Source of the DNA: an uncultured Bacilli bacterium
Lineage (GTDB): Bacteria > Bacillota_I > Bacilli_A > RFN20 > CAG-826
Reading direction: 5' to 3'
DNA: 64,000 nucleotides
NCBI GenBank assembly: GCA_947625975.1
Contig: CANQQL010000001.1
Coordinates: 10,833 to 74,832, forward strand
Part shown: positions 4,602-23,913 of the stretch, in pieces
Layout: each line of letters begins with the position of its first letter
Position numbering within the stretch: position 1 is the first letter of the stretch
The notes under the pieces: generated by a model
The model's input: the letters and a program-made list of their open reading frames with translations, nothing else
Database searches by the model: none
Told to the model about the DNA's origin: nothing
Translations under genes and position numbers: made by a program

Positions 4602-7600
4602 ATGAAGAAGAAACCCTTTACGATTATGATGGGATCAATCGCTTTGGCAATAGCAGCAATTGCTATTGTAGGAAACATCTTAGCGTTTGGAACATTTGAT
4701 CCGGTATTAACAAGTTATTTTGGTGTTGAAGGAGCAACTGAAACAAGTTTTAAAGATAATCAATATTTTGAAAGAAAATATGAAAACGCTAAAGATGCTT
4801 CTGATAGAGCAGATGAAATAAGTAAAGAAATCGAAGCTGAAGGTGCTGTATTATTGAAAAATGATAATTCTGCATTACCACTTGCTGAAAATAGTTCAGT
4901 TAGTATGTTTTCTGTTTCCTCAGTTAATTTTTATTCAGGAAAATTATATGGCTCAGGCGCTATTAATTCTGATGGATTATTGACTTTAGGTCAAACTTTA
5001 GAAAATGCAAATTTAAAAGTTAATAAAACACTAGAAAATTTCTATATTTCAAAAAAGAATCAATATAGTAGAAAAATTGGTGGTTTAAATCAGGGGACAA
5101 GCAAAACGCCATACAAATGGGGAATCAATGAAGTTCCGTATAGTGAATATACAAGCGAAGTAATAGCAAGTTATAAAAATTATAATGATGCAGCGATTGT
5201 GGTTATCACAAGAGAAGGTGCAGAAAATGGTGACTTACCTCGTGATATGTCAGAAGCGGATCCTAAAAATACAGGACATATCTTAGAACTTGATTATAAT
5301 GAAAAAAAGATGATGGAAGAAGTTTGTAAAAACTTCAAAAAAGTAATAGTGTTACTCAATACAACCAACACATTCGAATTAGGCTTCTTAGATGAATACA
5401 ATATAGATGCTTGCATTTGGGTTGGTAACGTTGGTTTAGGTATGAAAAGCGTTGGACAAATAATTGCTGGAGAAATAAATCCATCTGGAAGAACTGTCGA
5501 TACATATGCTTATGATTTGTTCTCTTCACCAGCTATGCAAAACATGGGAAATTATGCCTATGTTAATGGCTCAAATGAAACGACAGGACATTATTACTTA
5601 GCTTATGCTGAAGGAATTTATATTGGATACAAATATTATGAAACACGTTATGAAGATAAAGTATTAAATCAAGGAAATGCAGGAAACTATAACTATGATG
5701 AAGTTGTACAATTCCCATTTGGCTATGGTTTAAGTTATACGACATTTGAATGGTTTGATTATTCTTCAGCAATTAAAGGCGATAATATTGAAGTTAATGT
5801 TACGGTGAAAAACACAGGTAAAATAGCAGGAAAAGATGTAGTTGAAGTATATTATCAATCGCCATATACAGCTTATGATATAAAAAACAAAGTCGAAAAA
5901 GCTTCAGTTAATTTAGGTGGAATTGGTAAGACAAAACTTTTGAAGGCTGGAGAAAGTGAAACTATTACAGTTTCTTTCCCAATAAATGATATGAAGTCTT
6001 ATGATTCAAATAACAAAAAGACCTATATTTTTGAAGCAGGTGATTATTATGTCACTGCCGCAACAAACGCACATAACGCTATTAATAATATTTTAAAGGA
6101 GAAAGGAAACAACGTTGATGGTAATAGCGAACTTGCAAGCAAACATAATATTAAATTAAGAGATGTTTCAAAAGATGATGTGACAGAAGTTGAAATAAAG
6201 AATTTGTTTGATGATGCAAAAGGTGATGTTAAATATTTAAGTCGAAACAATTGGAGTGCAATGGACAACAATGGTTTATTATATGGAACTGCTTTTGGAA
6301 AAGATAGCGACGGACCAACATATAAACACATTATTGATGCAGCATTAAAGAAAGAATTAGACACTAAGGGGTATGCTGCATCTGGAGCTCCAAATGAAGA
6401 ATTTGTAGAGCCAACAGTTGGAGCAAAGACTAATAGGAAATTAATTGAATTTAGAGGCAAAGACTTTAATGATCATGAATGGGATGAATTACTAAATCAA
6501 GTAAGAAAACAAGAAATGGTTCAAATGGCAAAATCATCAGGGCACCATACATATGCAATGCCATCTGTTGGAAAACCATATACAACTGATAGTGATGGGC
6601 CATCTGCTTGGAAACCATTTATTGGTGATGGAATATCATCGGGTGGTCTACCTGGTGAAATTGTACATGCTTCAACTTGGAATAAGAAATTAGCCTATGA
6701 AATTGGTGAAATTATGGGTGAGTTGTGTCTTTGGGCAAAAATCGAAGGTAAAGATACGAATCCTAATTTAACAGGATGGTATGCACCAGCAATGAATATT
6801 CATAGAACACCTTTTGGTGGAAGAAACTTCGAATACTATTCAGAAGATGCAACATTATCAGCGATTATTGGTTCGGAAGTTGTAAAAGGTGCAACTGAAA
6901 AAGGTGTCGTGACATATATTAAACACTTTGCAATGAATGAGCAAGAAGCGAATCGTATGACTGATAATGTTACTTGGACCAATGAACAAGCCTTAAGAGA
7001 AATATATTTAAGACCATTTGAAGTATCAATTAAAGAAGGTAAATCTTTAGGATTAATGTCTTCTTACAATAGAGTTGGTAAAGTTTGGTCTGGTGGTAAC
7101 TATAATTTAATTACAGGAGTATTAAGAACGGAATGGGGATTTAATGGATTTGTCATCACGGACTATATGGATGGTGATTACGAAGATATCGATCAAATGT
7201 TAGCGGCTGGTGGCGATGCAGCACTATACTCACTTAATGATAAACATTTAACACTAAGCGGAGCTCAAGCATTAACATACTTAAGAAGAGCGACAAAGCA
7301 TTGTTTATATGCATTTGCAAATAGTAATGCTATGAATGGTATTAGTAGTGGAACAGTAATTATAGGTGGAACACCAATTTATCATCGTTATATAATTATA
7401 ATTGATGTGATATTAGGAATTGCATTGTTAGCAACTTTAGGATCAATACCATTAAAATTATTATTAGCTCGTTCTAATGATACAGAATCTGGAACACCAC
7501 CAAGGCTAGAAGAGAAAAAGAAAAAAGAAAAACCTAAGAAAAATAAGAATGTGAAAAAAGAATTGTTAGAAGAAATCGATCAACTAAAGGAACGTATAAA

Positions 7601-7655
7601 ATCTCTACAGGCTACGCTCTCGGAAAATGCTGATGTAGATGATAAAAATAATTAA
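4602..7655 (+). CDS. GH3-family glycoside hydrolase (beta-glucosidase/xylosidase-like), paralog A: N-terminal signal-anchor, permuted GH3 domains, C-terminal TM helix and charged coiled-coil tail
   Basis: FPFGYGLSYTTFEW (normally at the GH3 C-terminal/Fn3 junction) is near residue 375. The N-terminal-domain motifs GGRNFEYYSEDA, KHF and nucleophile GFNGFVITDY are at residues 740-860. TM segment IIIIDVILGIALLATLG, then a KKKEKPKKNKNVKKELLEEIDQLKERIKSL tail. Confidence 0.85.
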   Translation: MKKKPFTIMMGSIALAIAAIAIVGNILAFGTFDPVLTSYFGVEGATETSFKDNQYFERKYENAKDASDRADEISKEIEAEGAVLLKNDNSALPLAENSSVSMFSVSSVNFYSGKLYGSGAINSDGLLTLGQTLENANLKVNKTLENFYISKKNQYSRKIGGLNQGTSKTPYKWGINEVPYSEYTSEVIASYKNYNDAAIVVITREGAENGDLPRDMSEADPKNTGHILELDYNEKKMMEEVCKNFKKVIVLLNTTNTFELGFLDEYNIDACIWVGNVGLGMKSVGQIIAGEINPSGRTVDTYAYDLFSSPAMQNMGNYAYVNGSNETTGHYYLAYAEGIYIGYKYYETRYEDKVLNQGNAGNYNYDEVVQFPFGYGLSYTTFEWFDYSSAIKGDNIEVNVTVKNTGKIAGKDVVEVYYQSPYTAYDIKNKVEKASVNLGGIGKTKLLKAGESETITVSFPINDMKSYDSNNKKTYIFEAGDYYVTAATNAHNAINNILKEKGNNVDGNSELASKHNIKLRDVSKDDVTEVEIKNLFDDAKGDVKYLSRNNWSAMDNNGLLYGTAFGKDSDGPTYKHIIDAALKKELDTKGYAASGAPNEEFVEPTVGAKTNRKLIEFRGKDFNDHEWDELLNQVRKQEMVQMAKSSGHHTYAMPSVGKPYTTDSDGPSAWKPFIGDGISSGGLPGEIVHASTWNKKLAYEIGEIMGELCLWAKIEGKDTNPNLTGWYAPAMNIHRTPFGGRNFEYYSEDATLSAIIGSEVVKGATEKGVVTYIKHFAMNEQEANRMTDNVTWTNEQALREIYLRPFEVSIKEGKSLGLMSSYNRVGKVWSGGNYNLITGVLRTEWGFNGFVITDYMDGDYEDIDQMLAAGGDAALYSLNDKHLTLSGAQALTYLRRATKHCLYAFANSNAMNGISSGTVIIGGTPIYHRYIIIIDVILGIALLATLGSIPLKLLLARSNDTESGTPPRLEEKKKKEKPKKNKNVKKELLEEIDQLKERIKSLQATLSENADVDDKNN

Positions 7656-7820
7656 AAAAGAAAAGGAGAAAATATTAATTATGAAAACTTATATCAAACC
7701 TACTGTAGAAATCGAATCTATTATGATGCAAGATGTTATTTTGTCATCAATAGCAATTAATGATTCAGAAAAAGACTTCGAAGATTGCGATGAAGTTTTA
7801 TAAAGGAAATAGATAAAATT

Positions 7821-9533
7821 ATGAAAAACAAATTATCATTTTTAGTCCTTTTAACATTTGTGGGGATATCTCTTGCTGCTTGTGGAAACGAAGAGAATTC
7901 TACTCCTAGTGTGAATAATTCTACTACCCCTACATCATCTAATATCTATGATGACGATGTAGATTTAGAAGAAAAATACGGGACACCAACAAAATTTAAT
8001 TTGACAAATGGCACAGATACTATGTCTTTTGACACAAGCAAAAGAGGTTACTATTATGAAGCTGAAGCTGCAGATCTAACTTCGCCTGCAAAAGTAAAGG
8101 ATGGTGCGACTGCATCGGGTGGCCAATTTGTTGGTAATTTTGAACCGGGAGCAACAATGATTTTTGCTATTGATGTAGTAGAAGATACAGATGCAATGTT
8201 AATGGCATCAGCTGGTTATTGGAGTTCTGGGGATTATTATGTTGAAGACTTCCTCTATGTAACTTATGGTATTGACGACACATTCTTAGATAATGATATT
8301 AATCTAAGTGATGTTTCCTTTACAGGAAGTGGAAATTATAACACATTCCGTGAATTTGTCATTGGTGAAGTTCATTTGAAAAGTGGCATAAACTATATTG
8401 AATTTGACTCTTATGGCGATGCTCTTAACTATGATTATATTTGTTTAGTTGCACCATGGGATGGAACTCCTGATGAAGAAGAGAATATTGTTGATTTAAA
8501 AGAAAAATATGGTGACGTTAAAAAGAAACATCTTACAGATGGAACAGCAACAATGTCATTTGACGATAAGACAAGAGGCTATTACTATGAAGCTGAAAAA
8601 GCAACATTAAGTGAAAAGGTACAAATTGAGGATAATCCAAGTGCATCTGGTAAAAAAGTCATTACACATTTCAATCCAGGTGAGACAATGTTGTTTGAAA
8701 TTACCTCTAGTGTCGAAGCAGATGTTTTAGTTATGATGTCTGGGGCAATGTATGACCGAGTTGATGTTGCATTTAGAAATGCAGTTAAAATTAATTATGG
8801 TAACAGTCAAGATGGATTAGAAGGTGAAGTTAACTCGTACAATCAAATGTATACAGGTACTGGTGATTGGAATATTTATAAAGAATATATGATTGGAGAA
8901 ATTCACTTAGAAGAAGGAAAGAATTATATTAATTTATTATCTCTTACGGCAATAAACTATGATTATATTGCTCTCGTTAATGAATATGATGAAGTACGTG
9001 ATGGTGACTTTAAAGAAGATGTAGAAATTAATCTTGATGAAAAATACGGATATCCTACTAAAGATGTATTATTAAATGGCACAAGCGGTATGAAATTTGA
9101 TGATTCAGTTACTGGATATTACTACGAGGCAGAAGATGCAGATTTAAGTAGTGGCATTACTTTTGAAACTGGAAATATGTCAGGTGGAAAAGGTATTGGT
9201 CATTTCCAAAATGGTGCTACAATGACTTTCACAATCAATTCAGATGTGGAAACAGATGCTTTAGTAATGTTAGCAGTAACTAGATGGAATGACGGGGATT
9301 TGTTAATGAGTGATGCATTCAAATGCGAATATGGGGCAGATTTAAATAATTTATCTGGACAAGTAAACACATTTGAAAGATCAATTAAAAATCATCAAAG
9401 TTGGTCTGCTTATGAAGAATATAAAGTCGGAGAACTTCATTTAGTAGCAGGTGTTAACTATATCAAATTTACTGGTTATAATGCCGTAAATGTTGATTAT
9501 ATGTGTTTGGTTTCGCCAATTTTAGTAGCATAA
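7821..9533 (+). CDS. lipoprotein with three tandem CBM6/CBM35-like beta-sandwich repeats (about 185 aa each)
   Basis: Lipobox LAAC. Each repeat begins D/E-L-E-EKYG...RGYYYEAE and ends GE(I/V)HL..G.NYI.F....NYDY..LV, the CBM6/35-like pattern. Confidence 0.7.
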   Translation: MKNKLSFLVLLTFVGISLAACGNEENSTPSVNNSTTPTSSNIYDDDVDLEEKYGTPTKFNLTNGTDTMSFDTSKRGYYYEAEAADLTSPAKVKDGATASGGQFVGNFEPGATMIFAIDVVEDTDAMLMASAGYWSSGDYYVEDFLYVTYGIDDTFLDNDINLSDVSFTGSGNYNTFREFVIGEVHLKSGINYIEFDSYGDALNYDYICLVAPWDGTPDEEENIVDLKEKYGDVKKKHLTDGTATMSFDDKTRGYYYEAEKATLSEKVQIEDNPSASGKKVITHFNPGETMLFEITSSVEADVLVMMSGAMYDRVDVAFRNAVKINYGNSQDGLEGEVNSYNQMYTGTGDWNIYKEYMIGEIHLEEGKNYINLLSLTAINYDYIALVNEYDEVRDGDFKEDVEINLDEKYGYPTKDVLLNGTSGMKFDDSVTGYYYEAEDADLSSGITFETGNMSGGKGIGHFQNGATMTFTINSDVETDALVMLAVTRWNDGDLLMSDAFKCEYGADLNNLSGQVNTFERSIKNHQSWSAYEEYKVGELHLVAGVNYIKFTGYNAVNVDYMCLVSPILVA

Positions 9534-9710
9534 TTAAATAACTATAAAATCCAGTTCTAATCATGGACTGGTTTTTACATTATGTAAAAACTACACTGGG
9601 AATGTGCTTTAAATATGTAATGCTTTGTGATAAAATTAAATCGTAAACTTAATATTATTTTGTATTTATTAATTGAAAAAAAGCACAAAATAGCGTGTGA
9701 AAGGTTAATT

Positions 9711-10430
9711 ATGTTTAGAATAGCAATTATTGAAGATGAAAATAGCGTAGCGGATACATTAAAAGAATATATCAACAGATTCTTTTTAGATGCAAAAAGA
9801 GATTATATTGCTAATCGCTTTGATAATGCTATAAAATTTTTAGATCAATATAAATGTGAATACGATTTAGTTTTAATGGATATAAATTTGCCTGGATTAG
9901 ATGGAATGTCTGCCATTCAAAAATTGCGAGAAAAAGATAAGGAAGTTAAAGTTATTTTTGTGACATCTTTAGCTCAATATGCTATTAAAGGATATGAAGT
10001 TAATGCGTTTGATTTTGTAATTAAACCAGTTAACTATTATAATTTCGCGTTGAAATTAAATAGGGTTATTGAACATTTTGTAGAAGACGATGGTCATGAT
10101 ATTATACTAAAGAATAAATTGGGTTTAGTTAAATTAAATATCAATACAATAAAATATATTGAGGTATCTGATCATAAGTTAATATTCCATACGACAAATG
10201 GCAATTATGAAGAGTATGCCACTTTAAACAAATATTTAGATTTGCTTAAGGATGAATCTTTTTCCTTATGTAATAGATGCTATTTAGTTAATTTACAATA
10301 TGTGAAAAAAATTACTAAAGATACAGTCTATGTCCGAGACGAACAAATTCAAATGTCGCGAAGAAAATATAAAGATTTTATGGAAGATTTAAATAAATAT
10401 CTTGGAAGTGGCGGAAATATAAATGTTTAA
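9711..10430 (+). CDS. LytTR-family response regulator (REC + LytTR DNA-binding domain)
   Basis: MFRIAIIEDE...LVLMDINLPGLDG receiver motifs, with a C-terminal LytTR-like region. Start chosen at ATG 9711 (RBS AAAGG) rather than the track start. Confidence 0.85.
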   Translation: MFRIAIIEDENSVADTLKEYINRFFLDAKRDYIANRFDNAIKFLDQYKCEYDLVLMDINLPGLDGMSAIQKLREKDKEVKVIFVTSLAQYAIKGYEVNAFDFVIKPVNYYNFALKLNRVIEHFVEDDGHDIILKNKLGLVKLNINTIKYIEVSDHKLIFHTTNGNYEEYATLNKYLDLLKDESFSLCNRCYLVNLQYVKKITKDTVYVRDEQIQMSRRKYKDFMEDLNKYLGSGGNINV

Positions 10431-11760
10431 ACTCACACAATTGTTTATTTATAAAATCTTATTTGTCATTGAAATTTTAATTGCAATGCATCTTTTTTCA
10501 TTAAAACTGAAAAAGAAATCTTATCCAGTAGTGCGTTACATTTTATCCATAATTATAACTTTGATAATTGCAGTTTTCTTTCCGATTTTTGATGGATTTT
10601 CTTACACATGGTGGTATTCATCTATCATGTTTCTGTTTTTGTTTATGCTATGTATGGTTACAATGTTTATCATTTATGATTCTTCTTGGCAAAAAATATT
10701 ATTCATATCCCTAACATCTTATTCTATTCAGCATTTATCTCATGAAATATATAATATTGTTTCAATAATGTTAAATTTAACAGATCCAGTAGAATTTGAT
10801 GTCTATGGTTCGGAAATAATTGGTGTCGTTGCTCCAGCTTTCCAATTTGTGATAGTTGTTGCAGTGTTTTTTGTAGTATACTCCATCGCTTTTGTTTTTT
10901 TAAATAAGAAAATTAATGATTATGATGGTGGGAAAATTAATAATTCGGTTATTTTATTTATAAGTTCTTTAATTTTATTTACCGATATTATCTTAAATTC
11001 ATTTGTTATATATATCGAAGAAGAATATAACACTATATATTCATACACTATAGGATTATATAATATACTTTGCTGTTTTATGGTTTTGTTCATACAATTC
11101 AGTGTTATTAGTACTAAAAAAATACAAACCGAATTAGATATAACGCAGCAATTACTGCAAAAATCTGAAGAAAGATATATTCAAAGTAAAGAAAATATTG
11201 ATTTGATAAATTTGAAATGTCATGACTTACGTCATCAAATTAGAGAATATGGTAAAAAAGGTAGTTTGTCGCCAGAATCAATTATGGATTTAGAGCAAAT
11301 GATTAATATCTATGATTCGACTGTAAAAACAGGAAACAAAACATTAGACTTAATTCTTACAGAAAAAAGCTTAATTTGCCAAAAGAAAAATATCAAATTA
11401 ACATGCCTTGCAGATTGTTCTAAATTCAATTTCATTGCGGATTCTGATTTATATTCTCTCTTCGGAAACGCTCTCGACAACGCAATAGAAGCTGTGATGA
11501 AAATAAAAGATAAGGATAAAAGAAGTATTAATTTAATTATAAGAAATATTGAAAATTACATATCTATTTCTATAGAAAACTATTTTGAGGGAAGTATAAA
11601 ACTTAATAATGAAGGACTACCAATTACTACAAAGGGTGATTCTAATTATCACGGATTTGGAATAAAATCTATGAAATATATTGTAGAAAAATATAAAGGA
11701 ACATTATCAATATCATCAAACAAAGATATATATTCCGTGTTTATCTTGTTTGTAATTTAA
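10423..11760 (+). CDS. sensor histidine kinase, AgrC/LytS-like (polytopic N-terminus, GHKL ATPase)
   Basis: 6 N-terminal TM helices, H-box region NLKCHDLRHQ, and ATP-lid GFGIKSMKYIVEKYKGTL. Overlaps the RR gene by 8 nt. Confidence 0.8.
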   Translation: MFKLTQLFIYKILFVIEILIAMHLFSLKLKKKSYPVVRYILSIIITLIIAVFFPIFDGFSYTWWYSSIMFLFLFMLCMVTMFIIYDSSWQKILFISLTSYSIQHLSHEIYNIVSIMLNLTDPVEFDVYGSEIIGVVAPAFQFVIVVAVFFVVYSIAFVFLNKKINDYDGGKINNSVILFISSLILFTDIILNSFVIYIEEEYNTIYSYTIGLYNILCCFMVLFIQFSVISTKKIQTELDITQQLLQKSEERYIQSKENIDLINLKCHDLRHQIREYGKKGSLSPESIMDLEQMINIYDSTVKTGNKTLDLILTEKSLICQKKNIKLTCLADCSKFNFIADSDLYSLFGNALDNAIEAVMKIKDKDKRSINLIIRNIENYISISIENYFEGSIKLNNEGLPITTKGDSNYHGFGIKSMKYIVEKYKGTLSISSNKDIYSVFILFVI

Positions 11761-11786
11761 GAAGTGGTAAAACACTTCTTTTTTTC
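11761..11786 (+). terminator. rho-independent terminator after the histidine kinase gene
   Basis: GAAGTG-gtaaaa-CACTTC followed by TTTTTTT. Confidence 0.5.
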
Positions 11787-11894
11787 ACCACTTGCGAATA
11801 TAGTAAAGCCATGTACGGGCAAATGGTTGTTGTGCAAGTGCTTTCAATTTAAATTGAAAGTACTTAGTTTTCTAAGTGCGAAAGGAAAATTATT

Positions 11895-13058
11895 ATGCGT
11901 AAGTTTTCGATTTTTTGCTTATCTGCTTTTTTGATGCTAGGAGGATGTTTAGTTTCTTGTGACGAAACCGAACCAAGCGTCGTTAGTACTAATAATAGTG
12001 CAAAAGTACGTGAGGGCGATGTTTGCATTGATCTAGTAATTACTCAAATGCCAAAAAAACTCGAATACAAATCAGGTGAGAGATTCTCTCCTTTAGGATT
12101 AAAGTTTGATGCTGTTTATCAAAATGGTTTTGATGGTGATAAAGGACTAGAAGCTGGCGATCTTGATGGATGGACTCCATCTGGACCATTGACTTCAAAT
12201 GATAAGACAGTAAAACTTAAATTTGAGGGATTTGAAAAAGAGATTACTATCTCTGTTGAAGAAAAAGAATTGCTTGGTGTAGAAATAACGCGCGTGCCTG
12301 ATGTTAAGTCGTATTCATTTGGTGATCTTTTAAATTTAACTGGACTCGTTGTTCGTGCAACATATGAAGAAGGAGTTGATGAAAACGAGCAAAATTATGT
12401 AGTAAAAGATAACAAAGGCAAAGTTTATGTAAACGGCACTATTTTAGATGAAGCAAATCCAGAGCTAGAATTATTTGTAAGTGTAACTTCCAAAGGAAAA
12501 ACTTATTCTGATTCCTTTAAAATTGGTGTTTATTCCGGTTTATCTGTTCAAGCAGAAGATATCATCAAAGATGGTAATTTCCCTACAGACAAATCTTATA
12601 CAACTGTAAACGAAGATTATAGTGGATATTATGAATCTAAAGATGATTGCAATTTCACGGGTACTGGCTATATCGGTACAATAGGCAAAAATTTAGAATT
12701 GAACTTCTATATATATTCAAATGTGGAAATTAAAAATGCAAGACTAGTGTTAATTGCCTCCTCTACATGTCAAGGTAATGGAAGGATGGAAGATATGAAG
12801 TTTAATGATTGTTTCTCAGCATTTATTGGAGAAGACAATACAAAACTTAATGTAGATGATAGCGTAGTTATACCTGGTTTAGAATATCCTGCGGAAGGTA
12901 TGGGTAGCAAATGGACCAATTGGGCAGATGCAGAATTTGGCACAATTAACTTAGTAAAAGGATTTAATAAGGTAAGAATTGTGTGTGTAAATACCATCTT
13001 AGATGCATCAAATTATGGTCGTACCCCTAATGTTGATAGATTGGATATAAGATTTTAA
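11895..13058 (+). CDS. lipoprotein with two Ig-like (Big-type) domains and a C-terminal beta-sandwich domain
   Basis: Lipobox GGCLVSC. ITQMPKKLEYKSGERFSPLGLKFDAVYQNG and EITRVPDVKSYSFGDLLNLTGLVVRATYEEG match the bacterial Ig-like domain pattern. Confidence 0.65.
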   Translation: MRKFSIFCLSAFLMLGGCLVSCDETEPSVVSTNNSAKVREGDVCIDLVITQMPKKLEYKSGERFSPLGLKFDAVYQNGFDGDKGLEAGDLDGWTPSGPLTSNDKTVKLKFEGFEKEITISVEEKELLGVEITRVPDVKSYSFGDLLNLTGLVVRATYEEGVDENEQNYVVKDNKGKVYVNGTILDEANPELELFVSVTSKGKTYSDSFKIGVYSGLSVQAEDIIKDGNFPTDKSYTTVNEDYSGYYESKDDCNFTGTGYIGTIGKNLELNFYIYSNVEIKNARLVLIASSTCQGNGRMEDMKFNDCFSAFIGEDNTKLNVDDSVVIPGLEYPAEGMGSKWTNWADAEFGTINLVKGFNKVRIVCVNTILDASNYGRTPNVDRLDIRF

Positions 13059-16213: not shown

Positions 16214-16463
16214 AGATGTCAAAGAAAATAATGTGATAGAAATTGAGGATACAAAAGAAGCTGAAAAAGTAGAAAATAAAGAACCTAGTGAAATAGTTAA
16301 AAAAAATAAAGATGGTAAATGGCAAATTAAACTAGCAACTGGCGAAAGAGCAATTAAGCTCTTTGACAAACAAAGAGATGCCATTGAATACGCTAAAAAT
16401 TTAATGGAAACACAAGGTGGATCAATTCGTATCCATTCCCTTAAAGGAAAAATTAGGAAATAG
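16200..16463 (+). CDS. DUF2188-like small protein (87 aa)
   Basis: KDGKWQIKLATGERAIKLFDKQRDAIEYAKNLMETQGGSIRIHSLKGKI fits the DUF2188 pattern. The start overlaps the last 14 nt of GH3 paralog B. Confidence 0.5.
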   Translation: MRNIKDVKENNVIEIEDTKEAEKVENKEPSEIVKKNKDGKWQIKLATGERAIKLFDKQRDAIEYAKNLMETQGGSIRIHSLKGKIRK

Positions 16464-16490: not shown

Positions 16491-16538
16491 CCCCAACAAT
16501 CAGATGGAATCCAAAAGGATTGTTGGGGCATTTTATTT
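16491..16538 (+). terminator. rho-independent terminator
   Basis: 11-bp perfect stem CCCCAACAATC...GATTGTTGGGG followed by TTTTATTT. Confidence 0.65.
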
Positions 16539-16716
16539 ACTTAAAATTGTTTTAATTATATTTAATTAAAAACATCGCTAACCATTTACGAATAAAGTCA
16601 CACCATATACGTTTAATTTATAGCGGATGAAACTGCTTTCATTTATTTTATAAATGGATTATGACGATATTACAAATTAGTTTCTAAAATGTATCGAAAA
16701 TAAAGGAGAAAAGTTT

Positions 16717-19371
16717 ATGAAAAGTACATGGAAAAAATTGTTAATTGGATTAGCATTAGGTGCTATAGCAATTCCTGGTGCATCTATAAGTAATGGTGCC
16801 AAATTAAGTGAAGAAGCAAAAGATTTGCTTAATGATGGATCAAGCAAACATTTTAAAAACGCCATTCAAGTTGGTAGTAGTGATGTTTTGGATGTTTCAC
16901 CTATGTTTGTGCAATACGGAAAAAATAGTGAGCAAAAAGATTGCTTGAGATTTGCGGTTGCTTTAACTGGTGAAATCAAAAATATTAAATTTGTTAGAAG
17001 TGCATTTGATGGTGCTTTAGAAAACACAAAAATTGTAGACACAGTATACAAAGGAATACTTTCAAATGGAGAAACTGTATATTATAACCCTGCTGCAGGG
17101 ACAAAAAATGGTTTAACAAATGATATTGGTTATGCTGGCGAATATCTATGGGCTTGCTATACAATCAAGTTTGAATCTGATACATACAAATCCCAAAATT
17201 TAGAAGTAACTATTTTTGTTGATGGTGAAGAAAAAACTAGTAGGACAGCAAGTCTAGAAAATGTTAAAGCTGGTAATAGTGACGAAGTAGAGAAAGTTGA
17301 TTTAGATAAAAAATATGGTGAATTTACTCAATATGATTTATTAGATGGAGTTAGTTCAAATTCAATGATATTTGATTATAACAATAGAGGATATCGTTAT
17401 GAAACCGAATCTAGCTTGGTAAACAAAACTTCTGGTAATCTTGAAAATTCAAATAATAAGAGCATATCTGGTGATGGAGACTGGGGAAGTATTCACAATG
17501 GTGCAAACATTACATATACTATTGAATCTGATGAAGATAGAGATGCTCTTTTAGTGGCAAGTATAGCTAGAGATGGTGAAGCAGTTAATGCTACAGAAAT
17601 GATGACTGTTACATATGGCACAGATTTAGAGAACTTAAATAAAACAATTGATCTTTCTAGTCGTCAATTTACATTCTTAAAGGGATGGACAAGATTTAGA
17701 CTATTTACAATTGGCGAAGTTCATTTAAAAAAAGGCGCAAACTACATCAACTTTACTACTGGTGCAACTGGCTGTAACTATGACTATATTGGCTTAGTAA
17801 GACCATGGAATGATGAGGTTGACGTAGCAAATAAACCGATAGATTATATGAAGAAATATGGAACTTTCGCAAAAGATTTGATGATTGATGGAAGTGATAC
17901 AAAAGAATTCTCTACATCCGAAGCTGGTTACTTCTATGAAGCAGAAAAAGCAAATTTTTATGGCGTAAATGGCATTGGCACAGAAGATAATTCTAGTGCA
18001 TCTAATGGAAAAGTTGTCAATAGATTTAGATATGGTGATCATATTCAATTTGAAATTAATTCAAATGAGAAAGCAACTGTTGGACTTGTTTTATCAATGT
18101 CAACAGAAGCTGGACCAACATTCCAATACGATGATGCATTGACAATTCGTTATGGAACAAGTTCTAGCAATTTGGATAAAGTAGTTACCAACTTTAATAA
18201 AGACGGAAATCTTTTGGGTAGTGGATTTAAAAACTGTAGAGTACATACAATTTGTGAAGTTACATTAGAAAAAGGCGTTAACTATATTGATTTACAAAGT
18301 CGTGATGCATTCAATGTTGACTATATGGCATTAGTTAATGAACAAGAAGAAACTGCAAATATTTATGAAAAATACACACCATATGATAAAGAATTATTAA
18401 TAGATGGTAGTGAAAAAGATAGCGATAACGCCATGACATATAACTCAAATGAGTTAGGTTACTATTATGAAGCAGAAAAAACAGATGTTGATGGCGGGGT
18501 AACAATTGAATCTGGTTGTATTAAAAAATTTAATTCTGTAACAGCAACTGTCACACTTACTATTAAAGCTGATAAAGATTGTGAAGCCTTATTAACTATG
18601 GCAGCAACAAGGTGGAACGATAACACAATTCTATTAAGCAATGTATTGACTGCTTATTATGGAACAGATTTAAATAATTTAAAAAAGAGCGTGAATACAG
18701 AAGAAAGGTGGATGAATAATCATTCTAACTGGGATGGTAATTTTGTAAATTACTCAATAGGCGAAGTTAAATTAAAAGCGGGTATTAACTACATTAAGTT
18801 AGTTGGTGTTGCTAATAGCGGTGGTATTAATATTGATTACTTCACTCTTGTTTCGCCTGCTAATAAGTCTTTGAATTCTATATACGAATATGATTCATCT
18901 GTAAAACAAAATGGATTAGTCGATGGCACAAGCAATATGACATTCGACTTAAATAATAAAGGATATTTCTATGAAATAGAAAATGCAGCGTTATCTTCAG
19001 GAATTGGATCTGAATCTGGAAATTCGTTATCTGGAGGAAAAGGTATTGGTAGTTTCCAATATGGAAGAACTGCAATGTTCACCATTGAATCTAATACTGA
19101 TACAGATGTTCTTGTATATATGGCAATTGCTGAGGGAAATTATGAATTACAAATGTGCAATGCTTTCTCATTAAGATATGGAACAACAGCTGAAGCATTA
19201 GATGGCCAAGCATATATGGGTAATACTTTAATTGCTAAAAATGGGTGGAGCAGTTATTCTGAATATATGGTTGGCGAAATCCATTTATCACAAGGAACAA
19301 ACTATATCTTACTAACATCAAAAATCCCAGTTAACTTAGATTATATGTGTTTAATTGCACCTAATGCATAA
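16717..19371 (+). CDS. secreted protein (884 aa): N-terminal domain plus five tandem CBM6/CBM35-like repeats
   Basis: Signal peptide MKSTWKKLLIGLALGAIAIPGA. Contains repeated ...GY(R/F/Y)YEAE..., GE(V/I)HL..G.NYI and N.DY..LV blocks. Confidence 0.7.
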   Translation: MKSTWKKLLIGLALGAIAIPGASISNGAKLSEEAKDLLNDGSSKHFKNAIQVGSSDVLDVSPMFVQYGKNSEQKDCLRFAVALTGEIKNIKFVRSAFDGALENTKIVDTVYKGILSNGETVYYNPAAGTKNGLTNDIGYAGEYLWACYTIKFESDTYKSQNLEVTIFVDGEEKTSRTASLENVKAGNSDEVEKVDLDKKYGEFTQYDLLDGVSSNSMIFDYNNRGYRYETESSLVNKTSGNLENSNNKSISGDGDWGSIHNGANITYTIESDEDRDALLVASIARDGEAVNATEMMTVTYGTDLENLNKTIDLSSRQFTFLKGWTRFRLFTIGEVHLKKGANYINFTTGATGCNYDYIGLVRPWNDEVDVANKPIDYMKKYGTFAKDLMIDGSDTKEFSTSEAGYFYEAEKANFYGVNGIGTEDNSSASNGKVVNRFRYGDHIQFEINSNEKATVGLVLSMSTEAGPTFQYDDALTIRYGTSSSNLDKVVTNFNKDGNLLGSGFKNCRVHTICEVTLEKGVNYIDLQSRDAFNVDYMALVNEQEETANIYEKYTPYDKELLIDGSEKDSDNAMTYNSNELGYYYEAEKTDVDGGVTIESGCIKKFNSVTATVTLTIKADKDCEALLTMAATRWNDNTILLSNVLTAYYGTDLNNLKKSVNTEERWMNNHSNWDGNFVNYSIGEVKLKAGINYIKLVGVANSGGINIDYFTLVSPANKSLNSIYEYDSSVKQNGLVDGTSNMTFDLNNKGYFYEIENAALSSGIGSESGNSLSGGKGIGSFQYGRTAMFTIESNTDTDVLVYMAIAEGNYELQMCNAFSLRYGTTAEALDGQAYMGNTLIAKNGWSSYSEYMVGEIHLSQGTNYILLTSKIPVNLDYMCLIAPNA

Positions 19372-19383
19372 AGGTAATTAAAT

Positions 19384-20811
19384 ATGAATAAGAAAACTAT
19401 TGTTGCACTTGCGTGTATGGCTTTACTCACAGGTCTAACATCTTGTGATAAAGGTGGTTCAAGTACAAATAATTCAGGAGATAGGTCGACACCAACATAT
19501 GTCGACCAGGATCCATATGTTATGAGTATTGAAATAATTTCTGCACCTAAAAAATTAGTGTATTTTGCTGGAGAATTTTTTGAGGCATCAGGTTTAAGAT
19601 TCAACGCTGTTTGGAATATTGATGGGGAAGAAGAACTCATTGAAGACATGACTGCTTCTGATTGTGAATATTCTCCAAGAGGCCGAGCTTTAACTGTTGA
19701 AGATAAAAAAGTTGTGTTTAATATTGGTGGATATGAATTTTCTTTTGATATAACTGTAAATGATGCCGTAAATATTGAAGAAAAATATGGCAATGCAAAG
19801 AAACAATATCTTCAAAATGGTACAGGAAGCATGTCTTTTAATGATAATGTACGTGGATATTATTATGAAATGGAAAATGCAACAAGTTTAAGTGATAATA
19901 TTCGGATTGCCGATGATATTGTTGCATCAGGAGGAAAATATATTTCTTATTTCAATCCTAATGAAGAAGTAATGTTTTCGATAAATTCAAGTGTCGAAGT
20001 TGATACTTTAATGATGCTTTCTGGTGCGATGGAAAATCGTGTTGAAGTTATGTTAACTAGTGCGTTTGAAATAACTTATGGAACAAATTTAGACGATTTA
20101 TCTAATAAAGTAGAAACATATTATTTTAGTTTTACAGGCACTGGTCAATGGAATATATTTAAAGAATTTAATGTCGGTGAGATTCATTTAGAAGAAGGAA
20201 TAAATTATATTAAGATTAAATCGTTAAGGGCAATAAATTACGATTTTATGTCTCTTGTTAACGTATACGATGAGTCTCGCGATAGCGGTGATATTGATGA
20301 TAAGGAAATAGATCTTGAAGAGAAATATGGCACACCAACTAAAAATCAATTATTAGATGGTACAAATAATATGAAATTTGATGATTCCGTTACTGGATAT
20401 TACTACGAGGCAGAGAGTGCTCAATTAAGTGATGGCATTACTTTAGAAACTGGATCAATGTCTGGTGGACAAGGTATCGGAAGATTTAGAAATGGAGAAA
20501 CAATGACGTTTTCTATTATCTCTGACGTAGAAACTGATGCGTTAGTCATTTTATCATTGACTAGATGGAATGATGGAGATTTGTCAATGAGCGATGCATT
20601 CTTAGGAGAATATGGTACTGATTTAGAGAATTTAACAAAATCAATTAATACATTCTCCCGTACAATTCATAATCATCAAAGTTGGTCGGCATATCAAGAA
20701 TATAACGTTGGAGAAGTTCATTTAGGTCAAGGTGTTAATTATATTAAATTTACGGCGTATCAGGCCGTAAACGTTGATTATATGTGTTTGGTTAATCCGC
20801 TCATTTCGTAA
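19384..20811 (+). CDS. lipoprotein: Ig-like domain plus two CBM6/CBM35-like repeats
   Basis: Lipobox LTSC. ISAPKKLVYFAGEFFEASGLRFNAVWNIDGEE is an Ig-like segment. Two YYYE(M/A)E repeats, with the last one about 80% nt-identical to the last repeat of the 7821-9533 gene. Confidence 0.7.
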   Translation: MNKKTIVALACMALLTGLTSCDKGGSSTNNSGDRSTPTYVDQDPYVMSIEIISAPKKLVYFAGEFFEASGLRFNAVWNIDGEEELIEDMTASDCEYSPRGRALTVEDKKVVFNIGGYEFSFDITVNDAVNIEEKYGNAKKQYLQNGTGSMSFNDNVRGYYYEMENATSLSDNIRIADDIVASGGKYISYFNPNEEVMFSINSSVEVDTLMMLSGAMENRVEVMLTSAFEITYGTNLDDLSNKVETYYFSFTGTGQWNIFKEFNVGEIHLEEGINYIKIKSLRAINYDFMSLVNVYDESRDSGDIDDKEIDLEEKYGTPTKNQLLDGTNNMKFDDSVTGYYYEAESAQLSDGITLETGSMSGGQGIGRFRNGETMTFSIISDVETDALVILSLTRWNDGDLSMSDAFLGEYGTDLENLTKSINTFSRTIHNHQSWSAYQEYNVGEVHLGQGVNYIKFTAYQAVNVDYMCLVNPLIS

Positions 20812-20826
20812 TAGTGAGGTGTCAAT

Positions 20827-23800
20827 ATGAAGAAACTAACAAAAGGAAATATATTTACACTAGTAGCTTTTGCCGTTATTCTTGTGGGAGTGGCTATAGG
20901 CAATTACGAATGCTATATTCATTCTACCGAAATTACAACTCATTTAATCGGAACGGGTGTTGTGATTGATTCAGAAAAGGCTCAAAACGCTTTACTAGAT
21001 GGTGATGAGCTAGTAGAAAAAATTGCCGCAGAAGGTATTGTAATGCTAAAAAATGATAACGTTCTACCTTTAAGTGTGGATAAAGATAAAGGTTATAATG
21101 TTAACTTATTTGGAGTCGGATCTACTGATGATGGGTTTGCCTATACTGGCGTAGGTGGAAGCGGTGTTGCCACAATCATAAGTGAGGATATTTTAAATAG
21201 TGATGGCACTATTAAATATAAGCATAATAGAGTTACTCTAAAAGAAGGTTTAGAACAAGCTGGTTTTAAAGTAAATACTACATTATTAGACAAATATAAA
21301 GATGGAAATCCAGATCCTTCGTTTTATAGCACGGACGATAGTGTTTTAAAAAGTGCCAAAGAATATTCTGATACGGCTATTATTACAATTACAAGACAAA
21401 CAGGAGAAAATTATAAAACTAGTGAATTAGTTGGCGATGTGGATAACGGATTACAAATTACAAGTAAAGAACAGGCAATAATTGACTATGTTTGTGATAA
21501 TTATGATAAGGTAATTATTTTAATAAATTCAACAAACACAATGGAAATGGGATATTTGCAAAATCCTAAAATTAAGGCGTGTCTTAATGTTGGAGTACCA
21601 GGTCAATCTGGAACAAGAGCAATTGGAAAGATTTTATCAGGAGATGTAAATCCTTCTGGTAAATTAGTAGATACTATTCCTTATGATACTACACAAGACC
21701 CTACTTGGGCGAATGCGATTCGAGAGGGTGGAGGAAATGGTAAAAACCAAATCTTCTATGCCGAAGATATTTATATAGGTTATAAATGGTATGAAACAGC
21801 GGATAAAGAAGGCTACTTTAACTCTGTACAAAACGACTATGGTGAAGGTTATGATGGAGTTGTTCAATATCCGTTTGGATATGGATTAAGCTACACTGAT
21901 TTTGAGTGGACACTTAAGAGTGCTGGTTTTGAAGTAGATGGAATAAAGACAGAATTGTCAAAAAGCAATATTTTGACAGATAAAAAAGCTGTCATCAATC
22001 TTGAAGTAGAAGTTAAAAACACTGGTACTGTGGCAGGAAAAGATGTTGTACAGGTATATGTGAATGCACCTTATTATAAAGGAGAGATAGAAAAACCATA
22101 TATTCGTCTAGTTAATTTTGGCAAAACTTCAATTTTAGAGCCAAATCAAACTGAAACTTTATCAATTTCTTTTGATATATACGACTTTGCATCTTACGAC
22201 TGTTATGATGCTAATAACAATGGGATTAGTGGTTGGGAACTTGATCCAGGTGATTATTGTCTTAAATTAATGACAGATGCACATCACCAATCAAATGTTG
22301 AAGATATTACTTTTGTCGTTCCGAGTGCTGAATCAGATACAGGCAGAAAAGGATTTTTGTATCGCTTCGATAATGATTCTAAGGGCTATATAAAAAACAG
22401 ATTTACTGGTGAAAGTGCGGAAGCTGGTGTCCCTATTGATGGAAGTAGTTTTGATCAAGACCCTGTTGTTTATTTATCAAGAAATGACTTTAGCAGTACA
22501 TTTCCTAAAACAAAAACAAAAAATAGAACTGAGTCAATTGTTGCGGATACATTTATAAATTATTATTATAAAGGTTATGATGATCAAAGTGATTTAGTTG
22601 CTCCAATTTTAAATAGAAACAGCGAAGAAATGCTATATTTATATACTTTGGAAGATGGCTCGAAGGCTTCATTAAATGACTTAGAAGGGACAGGAAAAAC
22701 TGTTGTTCCAAACGAAGAGTTAATCTTAGAATTGGGAGAAAATTATAAGAGCGAAAAATGGAATGAGTTATTGTCGCAAATGTCAATAACAGATATTAAC
22801 AACTTTATTTCGAGTGCTGGATTTGGGACAAAACCTATTGAAAGCATCGGGAAACCAAATTTGCTTGATTATGATGGAAGTTGTGGATTTAACCATAAAA
22901 TGGCTAATACTTATGTCAGCAATGCTTGGACTGGATATGCTGGAGAATTTGTTTTAGCCCAAACATATAATGTTGATTTAGCATTGCAAGTTGGACGTGT
23001 TATGGGTGCGGAAGCAAAAGTTACTGGTGGAATGACTGGTATTTACGCTCCTTGTGTTAACTTACACCGTACTCCTTATAATACAAGAAACTATGAGGCT
23101 TATAGTGAGGATGGTTTACTTTCTGGTTATATTGCTGCTAATGTTATTTATGGTGCTAAAACTAATGGCTTGTCTTGTTATATCAAACATTTTGCCCTAT
23201 CAGAACCTGGCTGGAATCCCAATGATTTAGCGACATGGTTAACTGAACAAAACTTAAGAGAAAACTATTTAAAACCATTTGAAATTGCAGTGAAAAAAGC
23301 TGAAGTGAATGCTGTAATGAGCGCATTTAATTGTGTTGGTGCAGTAAGATGCTGTAATAGTTATTCCTTACTTACAGAAATCTTAAGAAAAGAATGGGGC
23401 TTTAAAGGCTCAGTAATAACAGATTATAATATGGGAGAAATTTCTCAACACGTACGTGCTGGCAATGACTTGCACTTAAATCCTAATACAACTGTTATGA
23501 ATTGGATTAATGAAAAGAGTGTTGGAGATGTTTATAGTGGATATTTAGCAGTTAAAAACTCATTATTTACCTATTGTAATACGTATTATACAGCAAAAAC
23601 TTATGATCCATCTGCATCATTGGGAGTTTCCAAACGTGTTGAGCAATTCGTTTGGTGGATTCCTGTATTAATTTTCGCTGATTTATTAGTAGTCGGTTCA
23701 ATTGCGTTCTGGTTATTTAGAATGTTTAAAACGCCTAAGACAACGACTGATATAAATATTATTGCGACGGGAGATACTAAAAAGAAGAACAGGAAGAATG

Positions 23801-23913
23801 ATAAAAGAATTCAAGATTTGATTGAGGAATTGAAATTGCTTAATAAAGAATTAGATGATTTAGAAAAATTAAAAAAACAGCGGGAAAGTAAGGATGATTC
23901 AAATGAAGAATAA
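20827..23913 (+). CDS. GH3-family glycoside hydrolase, paralog C (double-anchored, permuted)
   Basis: VQYPFGYGLSYTDFEW near residue 350. NTRNYEAYSEDG, KHF and WGFKGSVITDY lie C-terminal. TM segment WWIPVLIFADLLVVGSIAFWLF plus a KKKNRKNDKRIQDLIEELKLLNKELDDLEKLKK tail. Confidence 0.85.
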   Translation: MKKLTKGNIFTLVAFAVILVGVAIGNYECYIHSTEITTHLIGTGVVIDSEKAQNALLDGDELVEKIAAEGIVMLKNDNVLPLSVDKDKGYNVNLFGVGSTDDGFAYTGVGGSGVATIISEDILNSDGTIKYKHNRVTLKEGLEQAGFKVNTTLLDKYKDGNPDPSFYSTDDSVLKSAKEYSDTAIITITRQTGENYKTSELVGDVDNGLQITSKEQAIIDYVCDNYDKVIILINSTNTMEMGYLQNPKIKACLNVGVPGQSGTRAIGKILSGDVNPSGKLVDTIPYDTTQDPTWANAIREGGGNGKNQIFYAEDIYIGYKWYETADKEGYFNSVQNDYGEGYDGVVQYPFGYGLSYTDFEWTLKSAGFEVDGIKTELSKSNILTDKKAVINLEVEVKNTGTVAGKDVVQVYVNAPYYKGEIEKPYIRLVNFGKTSILEPNQTETLSISFDIYDFASYDCYDANNNGISGWELDPGDYCLKLMTDAHHQSNVEDITFVVPSAESDTGRKGFLYRFDNDSKGYIKNRFTGESAEAGVPIDGSSFDQDPVVYLSRNDFSSTFPKTKTKNRTESIVADTFINYYYKGYDDQSDLVAPILNRNSEEMLYLYTLEDGSKASLNDLEGTGKTVVPNEELILELGENYKSEKWNELLSQMSITDINNFISSAGFGTKPIESIGKPNLLDYDGSCGFNHKMANTYVSNAWTGYAGEFVLAQTYNVDLALQVGRVMGAEAKVTGGMTGIYAPCVNLHRTPYNTRNYEAYSEDGLLSGYIAANVIYGAKTNGLSCYIKHFALSEPGWNPNDLATWLTEQNLRENYLKPFEIAVKKAEVNAVMSAFNCVGAVRCCNSYSLLTEILRKEWGFKGSVITDYNMGEISQHVRAGNDLHLNPNTTVMNWINEKSVGDVYSGYLAVKNSLFTYCNTYYTAKTYDPSASLGVSKRVEQFVWWIPVLIFADLLVVGSIAFWLFRMFKTPKTTTDINIIATGDTKKKNRKNDKRIQDLIEELKLLNKELDDLEKLKKQRESKDDSNEE

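Follow-up and report, generated by a model that had tools for sequence, protein, structure and literature searches.

The permuted GH3 subfamily, described in PMC5104943 and PMC11233000, has been known and crystallised since 2016. In GlyA1, a beta-glucosidase/beta-xylosidase from a cow-rumen metagenome (PDB 5K6L-5K6O; Ramirez-Escudero et al. [quoted passage not shown] This enzyme is soluble, its published description mentions no signal peptide or transmembrane (TM) segment, and its C-terminus carries an extra CBM6/35-like domain that is present in about half of the cluster and hence is not strictly defining (PMC5104943). The same C-FnIII-N order is found in 58 of 126 three-domain rumen GH3s, and BrGH3A from the bovine rumen, an 814-aa, predicted intracellular enzyme with short linkers (41-60 aa) and without TM helices, has it together with the PFG(F/Y)GLSYT and GRNFEYYSED motifs that are shared with the proteins described below (PMC11233000, 2024). 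The GH3 beta-glucosidase of Paenibacillus barengoltzii (5WUG/5WVP) is likewise permuted, with an extra C-terminal CBM6/35-like domain and no membrane anchors. In contrast, Thermotoga neapolitana Bgl3B (TnBgl3B; PDB 2X40-2X42) is a canonical, cytoplasmic three-domain GH3 in which the barrel comes first, then the sandwich and FnIII.

Two further systems are informative with respect to anchoring and regulation. In PUL7, 21 and 33 of Butyrivibrio proteoclasticus B316, LytTR regulators neighbour secreted GH3s that carry a TM helix at the C-terminus (Kelly et al. 2010, PMC2914790). The same association is seen in the locus presented here, although the published account is a single sentence in which domain order, operator, kinase type and partner lipoproteins are not described. 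The SN243 GH3 beta-glucuronidase (bioRxiv 10.1101/2022.04.25.489410) has a predicted N-terminal signal sequence and C-terminal TM domain and was interpreted as surface-bound. It differs in belonging to another GH3 branch and in having no reported two-component link, and we take its domain order to be canonical because its paper mentions no permutation.

Here we describe three GH3 genes, G1, G2 and G3, in a 64,000-nucleotide stretch of DNA from an uncultured Bacilli bacterium (the window; Table 1). Like GlyA1, their products have the permuted order, long linkers, adjacent termini and equivalent catalytic Glu and Asp, but sequence identity to GlyA1 is only about 22%, a TM helix stands where GlyA1 has its C-terminal domain, and CBM35/6-like modules reside on separate lipoproteins. 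Terminal hydrophobic helices, CBM35/6-like lipoprotein partners, a LytTR/AgrC-like pair and 21-bp-spaced repeats are all absent from the characterised permuted enzymes. We consider it likely that G1, G2 and G3 are anciently diverged, GlyA1-type permuted GH3 exo-glycosidases, anchored at the surface and produced from LytTR/AgrC-driven operons together with CBM lipoproteins.

Results

The initial annotation described three GH3 open reading frames with a reversed domain order. The frames, all on the forward strand, are present as described, and Pfam gives the same order in each protein, with Glyco_hydro_3_C preceding the Fn3-like domain and Glyco_hydro_3 (Table 1). All of these domain matches exceed the gathering scores: the barrel (PF00933), with matches that span about 81-278 of 316 profile positions, scores 83-103 bits (cut-off 27) and the alpha/beta sandwich (PF01915) 74-101 bits (cut-off 31). 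With both barrel and sandwich matched, the proteins belong to CAZy family GH3.

Table 1. Features of the GH3 gene cluster, in positions of the window
Feature	Position	Strand	Description
Direct repeat	4493..4522	+	CCAGATACG-N12-CCAAATACG, 21-bp period, 80 bp upstream of G1 start; candidate LytTR operator
G1	4602..7655	+	Permuted GH3, 1017 aa; sandwich aa about 83-343 (Pfam Glyco_hydro_3_C 83-343), Fn3-like aa 413-488 (Pfam), barrel aa about 630 to 900 (Pfam Glyco_hydro_3 681-856); N-terminal hydrophobic helix aa 6-24, C-terminal TM aa 931-949, tail K/E-rich
Small ORF	7681-7803		40 aa
Lipoprotein	7821..9533	+	Lipobox LAAC, three CBM35/6-like modules; downstream of G1
Hairpin	9551..9571	+	Terminator-like, closing operon of G1 and CBM lipoprotein
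Response regulator (RR)	9627..10430	+	REC and LytTR DNA-binding domain
Histidine kinase (HK)	10423..11760	+	AgrC-like; HATPase_c_5 aa 340-442
Hairpin	11759..11780	+	Terminator-like, closing regulator-kinase unit
Direct repeat	11788..11817	+	CCACTTGCG-N12-CCATGTACG, just past kinase terminator, 78 bp upstream of lipoprotein-G2 operon; candidate LytTR operator
Lipoprotein	11895..13058	+	Lipobox LVSC, Big_3-like N-terminal part, one divergent CBM35/6-like module
G2	13073..16213	+	Permuted GH3, 1046 aa; sandwich aa 70-336 (Pfam Glyco_hydro_3_C), Fn3-like aa 409-486 (Pfam), linker 2 aa about 490-640, barrel to aa about 930 (Pfam Glyco_hydro_3 698-884); TM1 helix aa 3-29, TM2 helix aa 955-978, disordered aa 985-1012, tail helix aa 1014-1045
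Direct repeat	16582..16611	+	CCATTTACG-N12-CCATATACG, 106 bp upstream of operon from CBM proteins through G3; candidate LytTR operator
Secreted protein	16717..19371	+	884 aa, four CBM35/6-like modules
Lipoprotein	19384..20811	+	Lipobox LTSC, Big_3-like N-terminal part, two CBM35/6-like modules; immediately upstream of G3
G3	20827..23913	+	Permuted GH3, 1028 aa; architecture as G1 and G2; Pfam Glyco_hydro_3_C aa 71-319, Fn3-like aa 406-479, Glyco_hydro_3 aa 702-877; TM helices aa 7-25 and 938-956, tail charged, helical
Lipoprotein esterase	23894..25021	+	375 aa, alpha/beta hydrolase (Abhydrolase_2 / Esterase_PHB-like)
DUF4886 lipoprotein	25047..26420	+	In same gene run
Second esterase	26561..27280	+	Without signal sequence; paralogue of catalytic part of the 375-aa esterase

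Relative to the canonical order of barrel, C-domain and Fn3, that of G1, G2 and G3 is rotated cyclically. TnBgl3B, which gives the top PDB sequence score (E 4.5e-79), is matched by phmmer as two segments in swapped order (query 657-877 to chain 34-256, and 64-491 to 330-706); the sequence matches to permuted 5WUG (identity about 24-25%) and 5K6L are co-linear. When the AF2 model of G2 (pLDDT 91.8, pTM 0.90) was compared with known structures using Foldseek, the best matches were 5WVP/5WUG (E about 1e-54, 932-940 aligned columns), with 5K6L-O at E about 1e-52 and a target TM-score of 0.77-0.80. Across the permuted crystal structures the model aligns over 928-947 columns (target TM-score 0.69-0.80) versus only about 450 for canonical GH3s; that is, full-length alignment is obtained only with permuted structures. 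By domain order and co-linear full-length superposition, the three proteins fall in the GlyA1-type permuted GH3 subfamily. The extra C-terminal CBM6/35-like domain was not found in any of them, the barrel being followed by a helix, the TM helix and a charged tail. Since this topology is that of a published, crystallised subfamily, the permutation adds nothing new, and the novelty implied at first has to be withdrawn.

The permuted order might in principle be produced by an assembly or sequencing fusion of C-domain and N-domain genes, or by misassigned motifs. No support for such an artefact was found, and it is refuted by several observations: the three ORFs are separate and uninterrupted, separate metagenome assemblies (L028, L029) contain the identical sequence, the order is common to homologues, and crystal structures with this order exist. 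Specifically, Pfam finds the C-domain, Fn3-like, barrel order in 120 of 120 homologues among the matches listed, from a search that scored thousands, and because all of these listed homologues share it the order is no chance pattern. Pairwise identities among G1, G2 and G3 are 31%, 32% and 39% over the full length, which identifies them as old paralogues and not recent duplicates.

The diagnostic motifs are largely as first reported, with some differences in detail. The FPFGYGLSYT motif is in place near aa 348-382, within [F/Y]PFGYGLSYT.F at aa 371-382 (G1), 360-371 (G2) and 348-359 (G3), although G3 reads YPFGYGLSYT. RN[FY]E.YSED is at aa 741, 752 and 754 of G1, G2 and G3, respectively, but only G2 has the SEDP that had been ascribed to all three, G1 having SEDA and G3 SEDG. 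KH[FL] lies at aa 774, 785 and 787, and GF.G.VITD[YW] at aa 846-855, 855-864 and 858-867. Furthermore, what had been called a 170-aa insert does contain extra residues, about 45-50 of them, but is no new insertion. Between the end of the Fn3 match and the DGPSG motif of the barrel there are 190-201 aa in the three proteins versus 144-149 aa in 5WUG and GlyA1, the linker 2 of GlyA1 being shorter by the same 45-50 or so residues; because the difference is no larger, the segment is the known linker 2 together with a barrel start that Pfam leaves poorly matched or unmatched.

The residues of TnBgl3B that define the active site (D58, K163-H164, D242 and E458) all have aligned equivalents in the permuted GH3s. 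The nucleophile Asp in the barrel (VITD[YW]; TnBgl3B D242) is D854 in G1, D863 in G2 and D866 in G3, and the acid/base Glu from the sandwich (TnBgl3B E458, GlyA1 E143), which aligns with the ...SGE... of TnBgl3B, is E208, E203 and E194. The KH dyad is K774-H775, K785-H786 and K787-H788, the subsite -1 Asp (DGP) is D665 in G1 and D681 in G2, and the Arg of G1 is R735. Nucleophile, acid/base, KH dyad, subsite -1 Asp and Arg are invariant in an 89-sequence homologue alignment together with G1, G2 and G3. The catalytic Asp and KH motif are thus retained, as first noted, and because of this invariance it is reasonable to regard the proteins as probably active. The long extra linkers and membrane anchors, unusual for GH3 enzymes, could be taken to mean that these are pseudo-enzymes, catalytically dead proteins of GH3 fold that bind glycans or serve as scaffolds; with every one of these residues preserved, and with permuted relatives that are active enzymes (PMC5104943, PMC11233000), we find that reading highly improbable. 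Specificity (beta-glucoside, beta-xyloside, alpha-L-arabinopyranoside or other) is not assignable, because scores against NCBIfam equivalogs are at most 236 bits, far under the cut-offs of 666-1350.

Hydrophobic helices are present at both ends in 104 of the 120 homologues among the matches listed, as they are in G1, G2 and G3, where the flanks are rich in K/R; two such terminal helices imply display at the cell surface. No LPXTG motif was found in G1, G2 or G3, and their C-terminal tails are 68-76 aa long; they are not assigned to the sortase-anchored surface proteins. Tails of the homologues range from 4 to 141 aa, and because of this variation the coiled-coil look of the G1, G2 and G3 tails is probably not essential.

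The neighbouring genes encode mainly lipoproteins with CBM35/6-like modules (Table 1). The lipoprotein upstream of G2 is a conserved partner, found immediately upstream of G2-type GH3 genes, and the start of the 375-aa esterase gene overlaps the end of G3. A model of one CBM repeat (pLDDT 94) matches CBM35 2W1W with a target TM-score of 0.81, which shows the CBM fold. No transporter genes were found in the GH3 cluster.

The components of an AgrC/LytTR-type regulon, a REC and LytTR regulator and a polytopic HATPase_c_5 kinase, are present in the cluster. As in the identical contig L028, the regulator probably starts at the ATG at position 9711 and is then 239 aa long. Residues 1-225 of the kinase contain about 6 TM helices, and the kinase has no large extracellular domain. 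Of 27 loci found via GH3, about 19 have such an RR-HK pair next to permuted GH3 genes, as do all 5 contigs found via the kinase, and a Butyrivibrio locus (L026) has the arrangement RR-HK-GH3 with a G1-like permuted enzyme. In addition, candidate direct-repeat pairs of about 9 bp with a 12-bp spacer lie upstream of the putative target promoters, as in AgrC/LytTR-type regulons. The pattern occurs exactly at the fronts of the three GH3 operons, whereas shuffled sequence gives an expectation of 0, statistics that are partly circular in that the pattern was defined from those sites. No repeat was seen in the window before the regulator gene itself. The exact pattern is absent from the 27 related loci, where there are only looser 21-bp repeats; in L001, L002, L006, L030 and L034, the interval from the kinase gene to the GH3 operon contains comparable 21-bp repeats.

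A HATPase_c_5 kinase with a LytTR regulator is the classic peptide-sensing pair, and one can imagine Agr/Com-type quorum sensing in which the GH3 operons are controlled by cell density and the conserved 40-aa ORF encodes the pheromone precursor. A homologous 38-aa ORF directly follows the kinase gene in L034, and a relative with 66% identity exists (P0308). However, no AgrB-like or ABC/peptidase processing gene was found in the cluster, the 40-aa peptide has neither a signal sequence nor a double-glycine leader, and the small peptide occurs in only 2 of about 35 loci, with essentially no family. Peptide quorum sensing therefore appears decidedly unlikely.

Discussion

The explanation we favour is that of surface-held glycosidases under local two-component control. 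Permutation places the new N- and C-termini at the old barrel-sandwich junction, side by side. The N-terminal helix could act as a signal sequence, and then be cleaved, or as a signal anchor, while the C-terminal TM helix would be followed by a positively charged cytoplasmic tail; with a hydrophobic helix at each of two adjacent termini, the whole catalytic body would face outward. The enzymes would thereby be tethered to the cytoplasmic membrane on its outer side, within a large clade that has no biochemically characterised member. Each GH3 is probably co-transcribed with CBM35/6-like lipoproteins whose role may be surface capture of a glycan from plant or host, with esterases as the likely contribution of the third operon, and the GH3s would remove sugars from non-reducing ends by standard retaining catalysis, using the Asp nucleophile of the barrel and the Glu acid/base of the sandwich. 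The local AgrC-like kinase and LytTR regulator are predicted to drive all three operons, with the regulator binding the 9-bp direct repeats, 21 bp apart, just upstream of each.

It is also possible, although we think it unlikely, that the anchored GH3, with or without a CBM35/6 lipoprotein, is at once an enzyme and an in-trans glycan-sensing ectodomain for the AgrC-like kinase, such that substrate binding or turnover is relayed via the GH3 TM helices. A kinase of about 6 TM helices with no sizeable extracellular domain would suit this arrangement, as would the tight linkage of GH3 and kinase genes across diverse MAGs, the two genes even overlapping in L035. Likewise, a juxtamembrane F-x-W-W-I-P before TM2 and I34 after TM1 are nearly invariant in the homologue alignment, conservation beyond the needs of a plain anchor. 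Nonetheless, simple target regulation explains the linkage equally well; the pairing is not 1:1, since a single kinase serves three GH3 operons here and L020 has four GH3s with two kinases; and in G1, which carries a candidate operator, the WWIP motif is missing and the W955 position is occupied by Y. If true, this possibility would amount to a glycosidase-coupled two-component sensor, in which RR, HK, lipoprotein and GH3 form a self-contained, horizontally mobile unit to detect and digest glycans in gut Firmicutes.

Under the favoured explanation, that of anchored enzymes as regulatory targets, the yield of this analysis is descriptive: a large clade of permuted GH3s anchored at both termini, all of them from MAGs of uncultured organisms, of gut, rumen or metagenome origin. 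Members of the clade come in a compact module that also comprises an AgrC/LytTR two-component system, CBM35/6-like lipoproteins and 21-bp-spaced candidate operators. As a regulon, this module can be put to the test, and it is a candidate for a Gram-positive equivalent of surface glycan-capture systems; it also leads one to ask what is sensed by an Agr-type kinase that controls glycan foraging and has no ectodomain.

Circular permutation of the GH3 domains

The three GH3 paralogues of the window (G1, G2 and G3; see table) share one domain order, in which Pfam mapping places the C-domain first, the Fn3-like domain second and the barrel last, every domain match exceeding its Pfam gathering score. 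The initial annotation had read this order from short motifs; their positions hold, and their wording needs only trivial correction, as G3 carries YPFGYGLSYT and SEDP occurs in G2 only. The best PDB sequence match for G2 is the canonical Thermotoga neapolitana Bgl3B (TnBgl3B), which aligns as two segments in exchanged order (chain 34-256 with query 657-877, chain 330-706 with query 64-491), and the permuted structures 5WUG (Paenibacillus barengoltzii beta-glucosidase) and 5K6L (GlyA1) match co-linearly. Likewise, a Foldseek search with an AlphaFold2 model of G2 (pLDDT 91.8, pTM 0.90; input of 89 family sequences) returned 5WVP/5WUG at the top (E about 1e-54), along with 5K6L-5K6O (E about 1e-52, target TM-score 0.77-0.80). 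G2 superposes over its full length on these permuted enzymes (928-947 aligned columns), whereas canonical GH3 structures cover about 450 columns, or half of the protein. Taken together, the sequence and model comparisons indicate that the order is a real circular permutation. The chain break corresponds to the canonical barrel-sandwich linker, around TnBgl3B residues 307-319, and the segment known as "linker 2" is the join between the old, canonical termini. The alternative that the order was created by an assembly artefact is refuted by homologues with the same domain order, by the full-length match to permuted crystal structures, and by the presence of identical sequence in separate metagenome contigs. 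The central point of the initial annotation is correct, although the permuted topology is not new: it has been published for GlyA1 (PMC5104943), BrGH3A is a second characterised example, and three-domain rumen GH3s include 58 of C-FnIII-N order versus 68 of N-C-FnIII order (PMC11233000).

Features of the window and of the GH3 proteins (nucleotide positions in the window; residues given as G1 / G2 / G3)
Feature	Position	Strand	Remark
PrkC-like Ser/Thr kinase	203-1084	+	293 aa
rpmB	3934-4128	-	
G1	4602-7655	+	1017 aa
40-aa ORF MKTYIKPTVEIESIMMQDVILSSIAINDSEKDFEDCDEVL	7681-7803	+	between G1 and CBM lipoprotein
LytTR response regulator	9627-10430		
AgrC-like kinase	10423-11760		
G2	13073-16213	+	1046 aa
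DUF2188 protein	16200-16463	+	87 aa; overlaps G2 end by 14 nt
G3	20827-23913	+	1028 aa
Lipoprotein esterase	23894-25021		
JetA, JetB, JetC	28268-33748	+	type I Wadjet-like; strong PADLOC matches
DUF3137 protein	33775-34677		no defence-family match
glgC-glgD-glgA	34680-38335		glycogen cluster
N-terminal hydrophobic helix	aa about 6-25		all three proteins
Glyco_hydro_3_C	aa 83-343 / 70-336 / 71-319		Pfam
Acid/base Glu	E208 / E203 / E194		
Fn3-like	aa 413-488 / 409-486 / 406-479		Pfam
Subsite -1 Asp	D665 / D681 / D683		
Glyco_hydro_3 barrel	aa 681-856 / 698-884 / 702-877		Pfam
KH dyad	K774-H775 / K785-H786 / K787-H788		
Nucleophile Asp	D854 / D863 / D866		
C-terminal hydrophobic helix	aa 931-949 / 952-970 / 938-956		

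The same annotation had described a 170-aa insert ahead of the barrel, which does not stand as a new domain. In G2, 190-201 aa separate the last residue of the Fn3 match from the DGPSG motif of the barrel, versus 144-149 aa in 5WUG and GlyA1, and in NCBIfam alignments the barrel begins at about aa 632-650; the insert thus consists of linker 2, already known as a wrapping segment, and of the N-terminal part of the barrel, which the Pfam profile leaves unmatched. What survives of the claim is a stretch of about 45-50 residues by which linker 2 of G2 exceeds that of the solved enzymes. Residues 490-640 of the G2 model are mostly coil, yet have a pLDDT of 88-97, and D511, N520-R521, D534-G535 and R551 are conserved across the family. 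Searched against the PDB, linker 2 (G2 aa 485-660) gave only chance matches to CDC14 phosphatase (E 0.3); it has no independent PDB relative and is not recognisable as a domain of its own.

Relationships among the GH3 genes

Full-length pairwise identities of 31-39% mark G1, G2 and G3 as old paralogues, and for each of them closer orthologues exist elsewhere. Among the matches listed in the protein homologue search, the nearest relatives of G2 reach 74% identity; those with conserved synteny lie at 59-61%, and those from the contig scan, at no more than 61%, come from MAGs labelled Clostridia, Christensenellaceae, Bacilli or Mollicutes. In an identical metagenome contig (L029) the G2 position is occupied by a gene for a GH3 of 1046 aa, and the DUF2188 gene is called on that contig as well. 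In the related locus L017 (10121-14506), a GH3 gene of canonical order (barrel before sandwich) lies immediately 3' of a permuted one, and L018, L021 and L023 carry similar tandem pairs. Such pairs are the type of arrangement that could yield circular permutation through fusion and truncation.

Catalytic residues

Across the 89 aligned sequences there is no variation in the nucleophile, acid/base, KH dyad or subsite -1 Asp, nor in the arginines of RN(F/Y)E..SED, which bears out the earlier reading that the catalytic Asp and KH motif are retained. This invariance makes glycosidase activity of all three proteins likely, and leaves very little probability to their being pseudo-enzymes. NCBIfam equivalogs all score far below cut-off against G1, G2 and G3, so that no substrate can be assigned. 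A NagZ-type function was rejected, as PRK05337 matches at only E about 1e-3 and the acid/base Glu of the sandwich is present.

Membrane anchoring and CBM-bearing partners

Each protein has two hydrophobic helices, one at either end; after the second come a stretch rich in K/R and a charged tail. Of the 120 best homologues, 104 possess both helices, tail length ranges from 4 to 141 aa, and by the positive-inside rule the catalytic body would lie outside the cell. In GlyA1 the beginning and end of the chain form a two-stranded sheet (PMC5104943), so two terminal helices can enter the membrane side by side, a geometry that arises because the chain is broken at the old inter-domain linker. Sortase anchoring of the GH3s was ruled out, as there is no LPXTG motif. 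[quoted passage not shown]

A module of about 160 aa occurs in ten copies in the flanking lipoproteins and one secreted protein; window 7971-8450 encodes one of them. Its AlphaFold2 model (pLDDT 94) matches CBM35 and CBM6 structures (2W1W: target TM-score 0.81, E about 1e-8); the CBM lipoprotein sequences themselves found no match among PDB sequences, the fold being recovered only through the repeat model. GlyA1 and 5WUG have a CBM6/35-like domain fused to the enzyme C-terminus, whereas in G1, G2 and G3 the C-terminus forms the anchor and flanking genes provide the CBM-like modules in trans. Genes for two esterases and a DUF4886 lipoprotein lie 3' of G3.

Two-component system and candidate operators

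The genes between G1 and G2 include those for a LytTR response regulator and for an AgrC-like kinase (HATPase_c_5, 6 TM helices); the kinase has a counterpart of 100% identity, P0187, in the protein collection searched. Homologues of the pair are found within 10 kb of a permuted GH3, usually directly upstream, in about 19 of the 27 loci retrieved with GH3. Starting from the kinase, all five homologues (47-56% identity) sit in modules of regulator, kinase, Big_3/CBM protein and GH3, embedded among unrelated housekeeping genes. As the kinase has no ectodomain, a GH3 might serve as its co-sensor; this linkage is compatible with that idea, which we nonetheless consider improbable. Less probable still is a peptide quorum-sensing circuit using the conserved 40-aa ORF. 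A 38-aa homologue (MKNYENPKLKIVEIVLEDIVLVSTNESNKNIFDFDEEL; L034 8444-8560) directly follows the kinase gene of an unrelated module, and exhaustive phmmer found one real relative (P0308, 66% identity); the ORF matched no Pfam family, and a word-index search returned only the ORF itself. The C-terminus of the lipoprotein esterase (...DDFDEVL) resembles the end of this ORF.

The direct repeat CCAnnT(A/G)CG-N12-CCAnnTACG occurs exactly three times in the window (4493-4522, 11788-11817 and 16582-16611), 80, 78 and 106 bp 5' of the first gene of the three GH3 operons, with none expected in shuffles, a statistic that is partly circular because the pattern was derived from the same sites. The second repeat is immediately 3' of the kinase terminator. 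LytTR sites (AgrA, ComE) have an established architecture of paired 9-bp repeats separated by 12 bp. A search of the 27 related loci for CCAnnTRCG-N12-CCAnnTACG found nothing, even when agreement at 13 of 14 positions was accepted; what recurs there is limited to a looser core and the 21-bp spacing. In L001, L002, L006, L030 (a perfect CAAGATAAG pair) and L034, comparable repeats of 21-bp period stand between kinase gene and GH3 operon, and lend independent support to the candidate operators. A promoter consensus scan was uninformative in this AT-rich window (82 sites versus 73 expected).

Other features of the window

JetABC-like genes are followed by a gene for a DUF3137 protein and have no JetD 3' of them, so they may encode an MksBEF-like condensin rather than a complete Wadjet system. 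The PrkC-like kinase, in a conserved kinase-rsgA-rpe gene run, consists of the kinase domain alone, without transmembrane segment or PASTA repeats. Some GH3 and kinase relatives belong to MAGs of 28-30% GC (31% in the window) that bear the label Mollicutes or Bacilli, and a wall-less or reduced Bacilli lineage is therefore possible. Nearly all genes of at least 150 aa lie on the plus strand and the GC skew is positive over the whole length, so the window probably belongs to one replichore of a chromosome of Firmicute type. tRNA and Rfam scans of the 64 kb found no tRNA genes and no Rfam families.

Implications

We favour a scheme in which surface-displayed exo-glycosidases and CBM-bearing lipoproteins would trim captured glycan, the three GH3 operons being transcribed on activation by the local LytTR regulator. 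The enzyme as sensor is the more novel, if improbable, reading. G1, G2 and G3 are new, uncharacterised additions to a clade of membrane-anchored enzymes with a linked two-component system, and it is in membrane anchoring, partners and regulation that the characterised permuted GH3s differ from them.
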